From NCBI GenBank assembly GCA_026195275.1, contig JAPHQU010000003.1:71852-135851 (forward strand): a stretch of 64,000 bases of DNA, given 5' to 3'. Below, piece by piece: positions 58,890 to 64,000 of the stretch (positions are counted from its first letter, which is position 1; each line of letters starts with the position of its first letter). The notes beneath the pieces were generated by a model, which saw only the letters and a list, made by a program, of their open reading frames with translations, ran no database searches and was not told where the DNA came from. Position numbers and translations under genes: made by a program. Source of the stretch: Minisyncoccota bacterium (lineage in GTDB: Bacteria > Patescibacteriota > Minisyncoccia > Phycocordibacterales > JABMNX01).

Positions 58890-59840
58890 CTATATATTCA
58901 TCATAATAAGAAAGAGGTATACAAAATAACTCAATACAAGAAGGATTCCTTCTCTGCGAGAAAGCACGCCGCGCTCGCCAGTGAAGAGCGCGAGAACTGC
59001 GACAACAACCGCAACGATGACAGCAATGATGATATCGAGCGCGATGTGTTCAATGACCGCAATTGGTTTAATGAGCCCTGTGATACCCAAGATACCAAGA
59101 AATCCGAATATATTTGAACCGATAATATTACCAACCGCGATTCCTTTCTGTCGTTTCATTAGTGCAACAAGCGAGACCGTCAACTCCGGAAGAGAGGTGC
59201 CGACACCGACCACAGTAAGCCCAATGATAACCGGCGACACCGAGAGAAAATGAGCTATCGCCTCAGCTCCAGAGACGACCCACTGACCACCAACGAAAAC
59301 TCCAATCATCCCCACAAAGAGCATCACTACTGAGGCAAATGTTGCAAACACCTGATAGTCTCCCTCGTCACCCTCAATTGCTTTGCGTTTAAGCATAAAG
59401 ACGAACCAGATCACGAATATTACAGAGAGCAGCACACCCTCGAGACGTGTGATCCCCACAAAATCTTGGTCACCCAGGATCGGCAACAGCACAACTAGCG
59501 AGGACGCAAAGACCGCACCAATATTAATGAAGATATCTTTATACCACTCCCGCCGTATAAAGATGGGAGAGAAGGCCGCTACCAATCCCAGAATGACGAG
59601 CAGATTGAAGGTGTTCCCGCCAATGATCGCCCCAATGCCGATATTGTTCCCCGCAAATGAAGATGAGATACTTACCGCAAGTTCAGGAATCGAAGTGCCA
59701 AGACCAACAATTACGATTCCAATGACCCATGAAGAGATCTTGAGGATGCGCGCAATCGAGACAGCACCACTAACGAGGATGCGCGCACTCGTGATAAGGA
59801 TCGCAAAACCAACAATAAAAAGTAGAAGTTCGAATGCCAT
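58890..59840 (-). CDS. Calcium/sodium antiporter (CaCA, YrbG-like)
   Basis: Two alpha repeats GTSIPEL and GTSLPEL, GNIIGSN. Confidence 0.92.
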   Translation of the reverse strand: MAFELLLFIVGFAILITSARILVSGAVSIARILKISSWVIGIVIVGLGTSIPELAVSISSSFAGNNIGIGAIIGGNTFNLLVILGLVAAFSPIFIRREWYKDIFINIGAVFASSLVVLLPILGDQDFVGITRLEGVLLSVIFVIWFVFMLKRKAIEGDEGDYQVFATFASVVMLFVGMIGVFVGGQWVVSGAEAIAHFLSVSPVIIGLTVVGVGTSLPELTVSLVALMKRQKGIAVGNIIGSNIFGFLGILGITGLIKPIAVIEHIALDIIIAVIVAVVVAVLALFTGERGVLSRREGILLVLSYFVYLFLIMMNI

Positions 59841-60620: not shown

Positions 60621-61295
60621 GTGAACGATCAAAATAGCATGCAGGGCGGCATCGGCGAGACAAAGCCGTTCCAACAGGTCATTCTTGACATGTTGGATCC
60701 AAAAAACAAGAACGAATATGCGGTCTCAACCGCACAAGGACTATTCCTTGCTCGCGCCGCGTTCGCGGCACTCACCACACACGTCTTTGCGACCGAGATA
60801 TCGGGTACTGAAGATCTGGAGAAGATACTCGCCTACCAAAGGATGGCGGCAGAAAATCTCCAGATCACCAGTGAGACACTCGATGCGGTGCTCGACATCA
60901 TCGAGTTCCGATCAAAAAGCAATGAGATCAACCTCAGCCTCCACCCGGCGCACCAGACTCTTGTGAAGATCCTGATGACGCTCGGTACCAAGGAGTGTCT
61001 GGTATCAGCAACCGCGCCAATCGTGGTGATGGGTGACGATGCGAAGAAAGGGGTGTTCAACACCCTTTGCGATCTCGTCACCAAAATGGACATACCCGGA
61101 TACGCGCAGCAAAGTCTTCTGGACGCACTCAACGAAAATGGTTGGCGTCTCGGCTTCAACCTGGACAACACACACTTGGTTTCTGCGACCGATTCGCTCA
61201 AACGGCGAATGGGCATCAACACGGAAGACACTGCTTCGGCCGACTTTGACGTCGTCTCGAGACAGCCGGATGCGGACAATATCGCGGCTCAATAA
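60621..61295 (+). CDS. Hypothetical helical protein (ORFan-like)
   Basis: 224-aa ORF, GTG start after AAGGAG, followed by a terminator. Confidence 0.6.
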   Translation: MNDQNSMQGGIGETKPFQQVILDMLDPKNKNEYAVSTAQGLFLARAAFAALTTHVFATEISGTEDLEKILAYQRMAAENLQITSETLDAVLDIIEFRSKSNEINLSLHPAHQTLVKILMTLGTKECLVSATAPIVVMGDDAKKGVFNTLCDLVTKMDIPGYAQQSLLDALNENGWRLGFNLDNTHLVSATDSLKRRMGINTEDTASADFDVVSRQPDADNIAAQ

Positions 61296-61397: not shown

Positions 61398-61551
61398 ATG
61401 AGTCGCCACCTCAATGAAGTCTCTTCATTGAGTGCTGGCGTCCTCGGAGGGGGCGGACTCGATCTGCTTGTGCATGCAACGTGCACACCCCGTAGCGACC
61501 GTTCTGCCCCCTCCACCCCACCCTTCCCGGCGTCCACACGCCGGGTTTTTT
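61398..61551 (+). ncRNA. Candidate structured small RNA, family not recognised
   Basis: Two long hairpins with G-U pairs on the + strand, ending in a CCCGGCGT/ACGCCGGG hairpin and a T-run. Confidence 0.35.
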
Positions 61552-61560
61552 ATTTTTAAC

Positions 61561-61578
61561 TGGTGACCCTACGGGGAA
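61561..61578 (-). repeat. Duplicate of tRNA-Glu 3' end, carrying CCA
   Basis: 61563-61578 identical to 61766-61781; minus strand reads TTCCCCGTAGGGTCACCA. Confidence 0.9.
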
Positions 61579-61766
61579 GGCGTCAGGTTTCTAAGCTCTC
61601 GCCACACCCCATAGGGTGTGGCAATCACTAAGAACCTCCTGCCCGGACTCGGCGACAAGCCTCCGCCTGCGGCGGATCTTGTATACCGCCTCCGTCTTTC
61701 GATTCCCCGTAGGTAACCCTGCAGACACTAAAAAGCCGATGCTTTGCATCGGTCTTTTAGTGTCTG

Positions 61767-61838
61767 TGACCCTACGGGGAATCGAACCCCGGTTTCATCC
61801 GTGAGAGGGATGTGTCCTAGCCGCTAGACGATAGGGCC
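61767..61838 (-). tRNA. tRNA-Glu (anticodon CTC), CCA not encoded
   Basis: GGCCCTATCGTCTAGCGGCTAGGACACATCCCTCTCACGGATGAAACCGGGGTTCGATTCCCCGTAGGGTCA folds to a cloverleaf; anticodon loop CT-CTC-AC. Confidence 0.95.
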
Positions 61839-62001
61839 TAATAGTACTGCTTTTATTCTGAGTGTCCAATGAGAGTTTGTGCATCTCACCCAGGACACAT
61901 CCCTCTACGAGGGCTTGCCCTATCGTCTCGTAAACATCGACGATTTCCTCGCGGTTGCGAGGAACCGGATGAAAAGCAAAGCAGTTTGCTTTTCATTCCA
62001 A

Positions 62002-62022
62002 TAGCCGCTAGACGATAGGGCC
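62002..62022 (-). repeat. Duplicate of tRNA-Glu 5' end (21 bp)
   Basis: Identical to 61818-61838. Confidence 0.92.
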
Positions 62023-62056
62023 AAATTTCAATGCCCCACATGTGTGAGGCATTGAT

Positions 62057-62085
62057 AGAATACTACATTTTTTTGGTCTTGGCAA
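62057..62085 (-). promoter_or_regulatory. Probable promoter of the tRNA-Glu locus
   Basis: TTGCCA-17 nt-TATTCT on the minus strand, about 35 nt upstream of the outer 5' duplicate. Confidence 0.5.
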
Positions 62086-62092
62086 AATAACC

Positions 62093-63373
62093 TTACCGCT
62101 TGAGCCATTCTGCCTCTTGTCGCACCAAGAGCTCTGGAGCCTGTTTGGGGTCTGCGAGAGCGGCTTTTACCGCTTTCTCAAGACGGATAGACTGCGACCC
62201 TTTTATGAACGCGACATCGCCCTTTTCAAGGACTCGCGCAAGCTCCTCCCCCGCCTGTGTCGCATTATCAAAGTGTAGTGCATTCTGTTCATTAAAACCA
62301 TGCTCAATGGCGCTCTTCATAATATCGCGCGCTCGGATACCGACAGTGATTAGTCGGTCGGCGCACTCAGGTATCATCTCACCGATCTTACGATGCTCTT
62401 TTACGGAATACGAACCGAGCTCGAGCATGTCACCAAGTACCGCAAATTTCCTTCCTGAGACAGAGAGTTTTCGTAAGACAGTGAGCCCCTCACTAAGAGC
62501 TGCTGGAGAAGAATTGTAACTATCATCGATAATGACTGACTTGCGGACTCCCTCAAGAACCTTCATGCGTCCTGCCGGGGTCTTGTGCTTCCCTGCCGCA
62601 TCCGCCATGGTCGCCATATCAAGCCCAAAAGAGGAACCCACCGCAAACGCGGCGAGGATCGGATAGATATGCTGCCTCCCAAGCGCGTCGTGAGTTACTA
62701 CCGGCACACTACTCCCCCGACTATCAACACGAAATGTCATCAATCGCTCATGGAGACGATATGTCTCGTGCGAAGCAAGAAATGTCGCGCCTGCTTCAAA
62801 ACCAAAAGTAGTGGTTGCGTGCCGGTGTTTTTCTCTGAACGCCATGACACGAGGGTCATCTCCGTTCAAAATTAGTGTGCCCTCAGGCTTGAGCGCATCA
62901 ACAAGATATTCTTTTTCGCGAACAACCTCCTCCGGAGAATCAAAATATTCAACATGCACCGGCACCTCCGGAAGTGCCGTTACCACCACCGCGTCTGGCT
63001 TAAGCCACTCGGTAATCTTCTGTATGTCGCCCGGTCGATCAGCGCCGACCTCGAGTACCAACCATTTCGGATAATGGTTTTTAAGTGCAATGAGCAGGAA
63101 TCCTTCGACGATATTCTTTGTCCAGAGAAGCGGATTATTCCACGCGTTACTACATCCGAGGATAGTAAGGGGTACGCCAATGTCACTATTAAAACTCTTC
63201 TCGCTCTTGCGCACAAAATGCTTCGCGCTCATTATCGAAAAAATCGCGTCTTTTGTTGACGTCTTCCCTACACTGCCCGTAACAGCGATGATCTTTGGTC
63301 GATACTTCTTCAGGACCAGTGTCGCCTCAAGACGCAAAATGACAACGATGATTTTTTTAAAGAATGATTTCAT
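62093..63373 (-). CDS. murF: UDP-MurNAc-tripeptide--D-Ala-D-Ala ligase
   Basis: AVTGSVGKTSTKD, DDSYNSSP, VLGDMLELG, IKGS. Confidence 0.92.
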   Translation of the reverse strand: MKSFFKKIIVVILRLEATLVLKKYRPKIIAVTGSVGKTSTKDAIFSIMSAKHFVRKSEKSFNSDIGVPLTILGCSNAWNNPLLWTKNIVEGFLLIALKNHYPKWLVLEVGADRPGDIQKITEWLKPDAVVVTALPEVPVHVEYFDSPEEVVREKEYLVDALKPEGTLILNGDDPRVMAFREKHRHATTTFGFEAGATFLASHETYRLHERLMTFRVDSRGSSVPVVTHDALGRQHIYPILAAFAVGSSFGLDMATMADAAGKHKTPAGRMKVLEGVRKSVIIDDSYNSSPAALSEGLTVLRKLSVSGRKFAVLGDMLELGSYSVKEHRKIGEMIPECADRLITVGIRARDIMKSAIEHGFNEQNALHFDNATQAGEELARVLEKGDVAFIKGSQSIRLEKAVKAALADPKQAPELLVRQEAEWLKR

Positions 63374-63392
63374 GTAGATATATTCATCCGCG

Positions 63393-64000
63393 CTACCGGT
63401 CCGGTGGGATATCATAATAATTGATCAGGAAATTCACCGTATCCATAAAGGGGTGTGTGAGTGTGTTCGACGCATAACGCACCTCCTTCGGCTCGATAGT
63501 AAATAGGAAGACTAGGAAACGGGCGTCATACGCCGGGAAATAGCCAAAAAATGAGTGGAGGTACCTATCACCATAGTACCCTCCCTCCTCAGGGTTCGCA
63601 ATTTGCGCAGTACCGGTCTTCGCGGCGACACTATAGTTGTCTAGGGCAACTGTCCCGCCAAGAAGTGCCTCGTCAACAACCCGAACGAGCATGCGAGTGA
63701 TCTCTTCGGATGTACTATTTTTTATGACATAGGTATCGTCGACGTGACTCACTTTCTTAGAGAGTCCGGTCCGATAACGTACCTCCTTGACCAGATGCGG
63801 GGTCGCTAATCTCCCCCCATTTGCAAGCGTCCCTAATGCGCGCACAGTCGCGATGGGAGTCATTGCAATTCCTTGCCCAAACGACGCAGTTGCATACTCG
63901 ATGGTGCGAGGGCTCTTAAGGTTTCCTATCAACCCGACCCCCTCGCCCGGAAGATCGATCCCTGTCTCTTCACCAATTCCATAGCCGAGGAAATACTCGC
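63393..64000 (-). CDS. Class B penicillin-binding protein (FtsI-like), 5' part outside window
   Basis: TGIDLPGE, SFGQG, AKTGTAQ; frame open to the window edge. Confidence 0.9.
   Translation of the reverse strand, partial: EYFLGYGIGEETGIDLPGEGVGLIGNLKSPRTIEYATASFGQGIAMTPIATVRALGTLANGGRLATPHLVKEVRYRTGLSKKVSHVDDTYVIKNSTSEEITRMLVRVVDEALLGGTVALDNYSVAAKTGTAQIANPEEGGYYGDRYLHSFFGYFPAYDARFLVFLFTIEPKEVRYASNTLTHPFMDTVNFLINYYDIPPDR

Follow-up and report, generated by a model that had tools for sequence, protein, structure and literature searches.

A tRNA-Glu gene flanked by members of two separate, likely mobile mini-element families in a Patescibacteria genome

The tRNA-Glu locus

The locus is encoded on the minus strand of the window, by which we mean the entire 64,000-nucleotide stretch of DNA analyzed. 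The genome to which the window belongs was scanned as nine contigs comprising 600 kb. An intact tRNA-Glu(CTC) gene occupies positions 61838-61766 according to ARAGORN, and Rfam places a tRNA-Glu at 61838-61767 with a score of 59.9 bits. No other credible Rfam family was found between positions 59000 and 64000, where the only matches are to tRNA and to an overlapping, sub-threshold mascRNA. Copies of both ends of the gene are located on its two sides. The 5' copy is a 25-nucleotide repeat (62026-62002 versus 61842-61818, 96% identity) with an offset of 184, and the 3' copy is a 16-nucleotide repeat (61578-61563 versus 61781-61766, 100% identity) with an offset of 203 that is followed by the nucleotides CA. 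The locus also carries three perfect inverted copies of tRNA sequence, corresponding to tRNA nucleotides 53-68 (61713-61698, 16 nucleotides), 21-35 (61906-61892, 15 nucleotides) and 2-13 (61928-61917, 12 nucleotides). The features are listed here from upstream to downstream.

62093..63415, minus strand: Mur ligase (murF-like), the upstream neighbor and synteny marker (ORF, Pfam)
62057..62085, minus strand: outer sigma70-like site, TTGCCA-17-TATTCT (2 sites versus 0.5 in shuffles)
62028..62055, minus strand: leader hairpin (a similar hairpin precedes the paralogous tRNA-Glu(TTC))
62002..62022, minus strand: displaced copy of tRNA nucleotides 1-21, ending in the D-loop (repeat comparison)
61919..61999, minus strand: module B core, made up of three hairpins, with a conserved CTGC loop on the first
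61917..61928, minus strand: antisense to tRNA nucleotides 2-13, overlapping the conserved end of module B
61892..61906, minus strand: antisense to tRNA nucleotides 21-35 (15 nucleotides for its own allele versus 6-8 for other Glu alleles)
61841..61868, minus strand: inner sigma70-like site, TGGACA-16-TACTAT, 2 nucleotides upstream of the tRNA
61766..61838, minus strand: intact tRNA-Glu(CTC), CCA not encoded (ARAGORN, Rfam)
61722..61766, minus strand: terminator-like hairpin abutting the tRNA 3' end
61698..61713, minus strand: antisense to tRNA nucleotides 53-68, its last base being the first T of the T-loop
61580..61700, minus strand: module A core, two long composite stems
61561..61578, minus strand: displaced copy of tRNA nucleotides 58-73 plus CA (CCA end)

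Downstream of the locus, a 224-amino-acid ORF on the plus strand (60621-61295) has no Pfam match.

A previous sequence-only reading of this region had described a tRNA-Glu lacking CCA, duplications of both of its ends at these two offsets with CA after the 3' copy, densely base-paired spacers that hold no convincing ORF, and the absence of an integrase from the window. ARAGORN, Rfam and the repeat comparison agree with the first two points. The 476-nucleotide stretch has a fold z-score of -13, with 0 of 100 shuffles equally stable, and the ORFs that overlap it are only 51-62 amino acids long. No integrase lies between the end repeats, and the three integrase matches in the genome are all on other contigs. 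Two further claims require some adjustment. Inverted tRNA copies are present in the spacers as reported, but the 12-nucleotide example is only partly target-derived, because it overlaps the conserved end of module B that is also found beside non-Glu tRNAs. Likewise, the promoter-like motif before the outer copy exists, but a second such site directly precedes the inner gene.

The same reading saw in the outer copies the marks of the original gene ends, which they may or may not be at this locus. As a general mark of the original outer end, CCA performs poorly, given that these nucleotides terminate just 2 of the 14 full-length outer 3' copies. CCA is encoded in 4 of 29 other Glu genes, most tRNA genes of the window genome lack it, and the genome carries a PolyA_pol-family gene whose protein is probably the CCA-adding enzyme. 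Moreover, the inner gene has its own promoter-like site, though the -10 element ends 2 nucleotides before the tRNA, and its own terminator-like hairpin immediately after it. In several relatives, the 5' copy is accompanied by a duplicated leader. The outer copies span only tRNA nucleotides 1-21 and 58-76, and no tRNA can be made from them.

Two families of units and their targets

Unit A (3' side). An iterated profile search yielded 10 copies of unit A at nine loci in the window genome, G000, after removal of two reverse-strand self-hits and one match at E 0.41. These are located at both Glu genes, at Phe, His, Ser(GCT), Leu(TAA) and Leu(GAG), the last of which has two, as a remnant at Gly(TCC), and at the end of clpP (Pfam CLP_protease). 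The core at clpP is preceded by a 12-nucleotide perfect antisense arm, and the final codons of the gene are repeated there. In the stretch L198:709-1005 (G000:C1) these codons occur in triplicate; the first interval between them contains module A, and the second contains a perfect palindrome.

Of 201 genomes belonging to the order, 40 contain a match to the module A core (E≤1e-4). Among the 30 best unit A loci, 24 have a tRNA no more than 330 nucleotides upstream, representing 13 amino-acid classes, and the remaining six are cut by contig ends or occur in arrays. The arms follow the local tRNA and not others. Specifically, the antisense arm has a mean match of 12.2 nucleotides to its own tRNA versus 5.5 to others, and the direct copy 14.3 versus 5.7 (n=24 and 0 of 10,000 permutations for each, values that overstate the case because the genomes are related). 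The direct copy is 14-19 nucleotides long in most of the 24 loci and 16 nucleotides long at the window locus. It begins at C56 in 16 of the 24, and the antisense arm stops at T54 in 15. On a purely geometric reading, these joints, offset by 2 nucleotides within one T-loop, look as if the core had capped a staggered end. Double-sided changes occur in 14 of the 23 predicted pairs of the core, in an alignment of the 19 of 22 cores that have delimitable ends.

Unit B (5' side). The first 87 nucleotides of unit B have matches in 115 of 301 genomes (E≤0.01), many of which involve the first hairpin only. The 30 stretches with an exact match to a module B motif comprise 28 whose titles name Patescibacteria lineages and two titled 'bacterium', a distribution that places the family, and presumably the window genome, among the Patescibacteria. 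At 19 of the 30 best unit B loci there is a downstream tRNA (Glu, Ser, Gln, Val, Phe, Cys or Leu) whose own 5' copy is joined to the core, and 21 of the 30 exact-motif loci are likewise organized. The core is joined after the first 10-23 nucleotides of many tRNAs, with the joint following a GG that is mostly in the D-loop (nucleotides 18-23) and falling after nucleotide 10 in some Leu genes. The direct copy matches 15.5 nucleotides of its own tRNA versus 6.5 of others, and the antisense arm 6.4 versus 4.7 (n=19 and 0 of 10,000 permutations for each, again overstated by relatedness). At Leu loci with the joint after nucleotide 10, the antisense arm varies with the first bases of the tRNA, and thus unit B is a mirror of unit A. 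At Glu loci the antisense arm corresponds to nucleotides 21-35, which is off the mirror position predicted by a simple model. There it follows the allele, with a match of 15 nucleotides to its own tRNA versus 6-8 for five other Glu alleles. Covariation supports the module B fold, in that double changes affect 9 of 20 pairs, with 93% of cells paired, among 21 aligned cores (0 of 500 shuffles), compared with 42-53% of cells in slid alignments.

Unit B also occurs downstream of tRNA-Thr, within a copy of the 3' part of the gene (L043, L057), and 3 of 30 loci have module B within a 23S rRNA gene (L049, L050, L065). At six related loci, Rfam matched only tRNA and LSU rRNA. At the L057 locus, module B is immediately followed by a GIY-YIG-like ORF, recognized by eye and framed by inverted repeats, which sits in the T-loop of a dead copy of tRNA-Thr. 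In the three 23S rRNA examples, all in the 5' domain, the arm of the first module B hairpin resembles the native 23S sequence at that place, and a second sense 23S copy comes after module B in L050 and L065. Judging from this likeness, the first hairpin may be derived from, or guided to, 23S rRNA.

Separate occurrence of the two units. A and B are different families that occur separately. From 30 Glu loci ranked by tRNA sequence alone, we removed the window's own and three with short flanks. Units were scored by an end copy of at least 11 nucleotides within 330 nucleotides or by a profile match, a rule that includes other families and that missed one stacked 5' array lying beyond 330 nucleotides. 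By this tally, 14 of the 26 other Glu loci have neither unit, 10 have a 3' unit only, one has a 5' unit only and one has both. This single double locus compares with an expectation of about 0.85 if the two were independent, and so the nesting is a coincidence. Hence, the sequence-only reading of a single 'tRNA within a tRNA' gives way to an intact tRNA-Glu(CTC) accompanied by two inserts that are independent of each other. The layout itself is real, and it is not a new kind of tRNA gene. Double-sided Glu loci occur independently elsewhere (L007, L014, L024), and among 11 Glu loci adjacent to a Mur ligase gene, only that of the window has a 5' unit.

Other tRNAs and other genomes had been suggested as places to look for further end duplications and for empty alleles. 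Both exist, as the two units recur in dozens of genomes with conserved folded cores, making the layout far from unique, and the 14 unoccupied Glu loci provide the empty alleles. Occupancy, contrasted here between species and not strains, is patchy, and the units are often decayed. Because units come and go between relatives, they are likely to be mobile.

These distributions also bear on the proposal that the locus produces a regulatory precursor whose alternative folding or splicing gates tRNA-Glu maturation. At equilibrium, the full 462-nucleotide RNA is indeed predicted to lose the cloverleaf, which costs 15.1 kcal/mol to force (9.7 from the 5' part plus 5.4 from the 3' part). However, the tRNA plus its first hairpin has a normal predicted fold, and a device needed for maturation is difficult to reconcile with the unoccupied Glu loci or with units at unrelated tRNAs, clpP and 23S rRNA. 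Splicing fares no better. Rfam gives no match at the locus to an intron family, as would be sought for a group I, group II or BHB intron, and the outer pieces do not sum to a complete, split tRNA, since both lack the anticodon arm. We regard control of maturation as very improbable.

Paralogs and assembly. The 3' units of the two Glu genes are 99% identical over 153 nucleotides, whereas the tRNA bodies are 84% identical, which suggests recent copying between the paralogs. An assembly break, at which contigs C1 and C4 start, falls within the Glu(TTC) member of this near-identical pair, and this could be taken as a sign that the window locus is a misassembly or a one-off template-switch duplication. 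However, the window's copy of unit A lies in the interior of its contig between unique flanks and shows two differences from the paralog. Given also the recurrence of each unit in dozens of genomes and the independent double-sided Glu loci, an artifact or single accident of this type is highly improbable.

Several other observations concern the same genomes. A leader hairpin is shared by the two tRNA-Glu paralogs within each of three genomes and differs between genomes (window 62055-62028 and G000:C1:146-198; L069 and L076; L070 and L077), which suggests concerted evolution of the Glu flanks. Partial tRNA copies, which may lie on either side of the gene, are fused at their anticodon loop or T-loop to a third family of modules (L015, L026, L014 and L016, and on G000:C4 upstream of tRNA-Cys). 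The small contigs C3, C7 and C9 of G000 differ from the others in the tRNAs or integrases they carry; C7 opens with a second tRNA-Ser(CGA) beside an integrase. These contigs may be islands or foreign DNA.

A possible mode of movement

Each unit consists of a conserved folded core plus a sense and an antisense copy of the end of the adjacent gene, and is characterized by fixed joints and patchy occupancy. We assign a probability of roughly 0.6 to the reading that the locus is a tRNA-Glu gene flanked by one member each of two likely non-autonomous mobile families, probably of single-stranded DNA, whose arms are rebuilt from the target at each insertion. By this mechanism, the tRNA gene would become exposed as single-stranded DNA and would be cut at a fixed point, in the T-loop for A and, for B, behind a GG that is mostly in the D-loop. 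One of the broken ends would be joined to the core, and the antisense arm would then be written at a nearby hairpin by fold-back synthesis. Repair on the intact strand would yield one complete gene and an adjacent dead partial copy, and gene conversion might subsequently spread copies between tRNAs that share the same end. Alternatively, the match between arms and target could be kept up by such later conversion instead of being written at insertion. The cutting enzyme would be supplied in trans, and the leading putative candidate is a small stand-alone GIY-YIG (Ssn-like) nuclease.

The sequence-only reading had anticipated tiny non-autonomous tRNA-targeting elements with complementarity to their target. 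This idea is supported, except that the end of clpP (for A) and 23S rRNA (for B) are also targets. That reading had further assigned the complementarity to an element RNA. The complementarity is present, but the loop evidence leans toward single-stranded DNA. On the tRNA-sense strand, C-GNA-G triloops number 5 in A versus 0.39 in shuffled sequences and 10 in B versus 0.28, with none on the other strand. DNA mini-hairpins of this type are far more stable than their RNA counterparts, according to the available part of PMC13037366. As a counterpoint, the hairpin before A is also enriched in GNRA tetraloops (4 versus 0.29), and the bias toward the sense strand fits RNA equally well.

Accordingly, some weight must be given to elements that operate at the RNA level, which would be co-transcribed with the tRNA, excised by tRNA-processing enzymes via the copied ends, and act as small RNAs or reverse-transcribed movers. 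Every target seen is a transcribed gene, including the 23S rRNA genes at 3 of 30 module B loci, and the folds lie on the sense strand. The antisense arm of unit A is also able to pair with its outer copy in predicted folds. In E. coli, repeats of a comparable layout (TLRs, see below) that lie behind 5S rRNA are transcribed, processed, and bound by Hfq and CsrA (PMC8144298, in part). However, RVT_1 (PF00078) has no match in the window genome, a terminator-like hairpin stands ahead of unit A, occupancy is patchy with frequent decay, and the triloops are of the DNA-stable type. We consider an RNA-level element unlikely, though worth keeping in mind.

Candidate enzymes. A co-occurring recombinase or nuclease had been proposed as something to look for, and the outcome is mixed. 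Family searches of the window genome revealed three Phage_integrase genes, one Y1 gene and three small GIY-YIG genes, with no match to the IS110 DEDD recombinase (PF01548). Of 27 small GIY-YIG loci, 8 have a tRNA or tmRNA no more than 400 bp away, but no enzyme is tied to A or B. Unit B is near none of these 27 loci, and unit A is near two, each time across a tRNA and not flanking. One GIY-YIG gene of the window genome, about 85 amino acids long, is located between two copies of the first 11 nucleotides of tRNA-Val(GAC), each in a fold-back hairpin, upstream of the intact gene (G000:C1:1190-1555, L033). Similar layouts are seen in L113, L137, L138 and L139. The Y1 transposase was rejected as a candidate, being encoded by a single gene in the window genome that is not near A or B. 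Short perfect palindromes frame a Y1-like gene at G000:C5:48700-49500 (L081), one also lies inside the ORF, and the arrangement looks RAYT-type.

A broader generalization is more tentative. A and B might exemplify a class of protein-less single-stranded DNA mini-elements, with 3' and 5' mirror forms, in which both arms are rewritten from the host gene at each insertion and a small GIY-YIG nuclease acts in trans. This class, whose existence we consider somewhat doubtful, would include ancestors or analogues of the E. coli TLRs.

Relation to known systems

Islands that use a tyrosine integrase to target tRNA genes displace a partial copy of the gene end and leave one intact gene, with the joint in the T-loop. 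Unit A and unit B might be deletion remnants of such islands, in which case the copies would be att sites. The 3' copy of unit A does start in the T-loop, one of the recognized sublocations for integrases, and one of the three Phage_integrase matches in the genome adjoins a tRNA-Ser. However, island remnants leave unexplained the antisense arms, the 5' mirror form, the folded cores conserved across 13 tRNA classes, and the clpP and 23S sites. Exact motif scans for both modules also found neither core in viral contigs. Unlike the islands, A and B are smaller than 200 bp and have no integrase. We find an origin from islands very improbable.

REP/REPIN sequences with their RAYT, and other mini-elements derived from IS200/IS605, are gene-less hairpin units thought to move as single-stranded DNA with the enzyme supplied in trans. 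To our knowledge, they neither duplicate nor mirror their target. The sole Y1 gene of the window genome has short palindromes of its own, not A or B.

The Ssn GIY-YIG nucleases with their NTS/SRM hairpin repeats resemble A and B in the use of strand-specific DNA hairpins and in the proposed cleavage just outside the hairpin. SsnA cuts single-stranded DNA a few nucleotides upstream of a hairpin and on one strand only, as described in the available part of PMC11893778, a paper whose main text has no occurrence of 'tRNA'. Small GIY-YIG genes do adjoin tRNA fragments in the genomes examined here. The cores of A and B differ from Ssn repeats in being multi-hairpin units of 80-120 nucleotides, in having target-derived arms, and in not flanking GIY-YIG genes. 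The degenerate SRM motif is absent from 61501-62100 and occurs at five scattered places across the window genome.

No description of the Patescibacteria A and B units was found in the open-access literature, supplements and subscription papers aside, and they do not appear in the available parts of PMC1564403 or bioRxiv 10.1101/2024.07.17.603846. On a practical note, their dead copies break assemblies and yield false tRNA fragments in these genomes.

The closest parallel is provided by the tRNA-linked repeats (TLRs) of E. coli, a family of 22 members that is defined by the 3' copy and has no known function (PMC8144298, in part). In these repeats, the 18-19 bp at the 3' end of the unit are identical to those that end the tRNA or rRNA gene upstream (same source). 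Unit A has a 3'-end copy of this type, 16 nucleotides long at the window locus. Like unit A, the E. coli TLRs (the 178-bp repeats of tyrT/tyrV, and rtT; RrA/B/F) are gene-less and lie behind tRNA or rRNA genes. The tyrV repeat, which has a period of 178, carries at +59 a stretch of 10 nucleotides antisense to the T-arm strand, then a structured core and finally a 19-nucleotide direct copy of the 3' end, and this is the layout of unit A. At the tyrT locus, the sole TLR locus compared, the best blastn match to unit A has an E-value of 0.69 and there is no module A profile match. The window has no Rfam RtT match at E≤1. Because sequence similarity is lacking, unit A is TLR-like in layout, yet we do not class it as a TLR.

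The available part of PMC8144298 describes TLRs with 3' copies only, and with neither antisense arms nor mobility. The Patescibacteria units differ from TLRs in that they also include a 5' mirror family and a protein-gene target. Thus, the window locus holds two independent members of undescribed Patescibacteria mini-element families, whose layout is a variant of that of the TLRs, extended by a 5' mirror form. If their arms are written from the target at insertion, this would be a mode of movement used by no described insertion sequence or island. Although TLRs have been known in E. coli since 1978, their function and origin have been unexplained for more than 45 years (PMC8144298, in part), and A and B may explain them. 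The Patescibacteria families add to the TLR layout empty alleles, many targets, base-exact joints, covarying cores and a 5' mirror, and with these features the origin of such units becomes testable.
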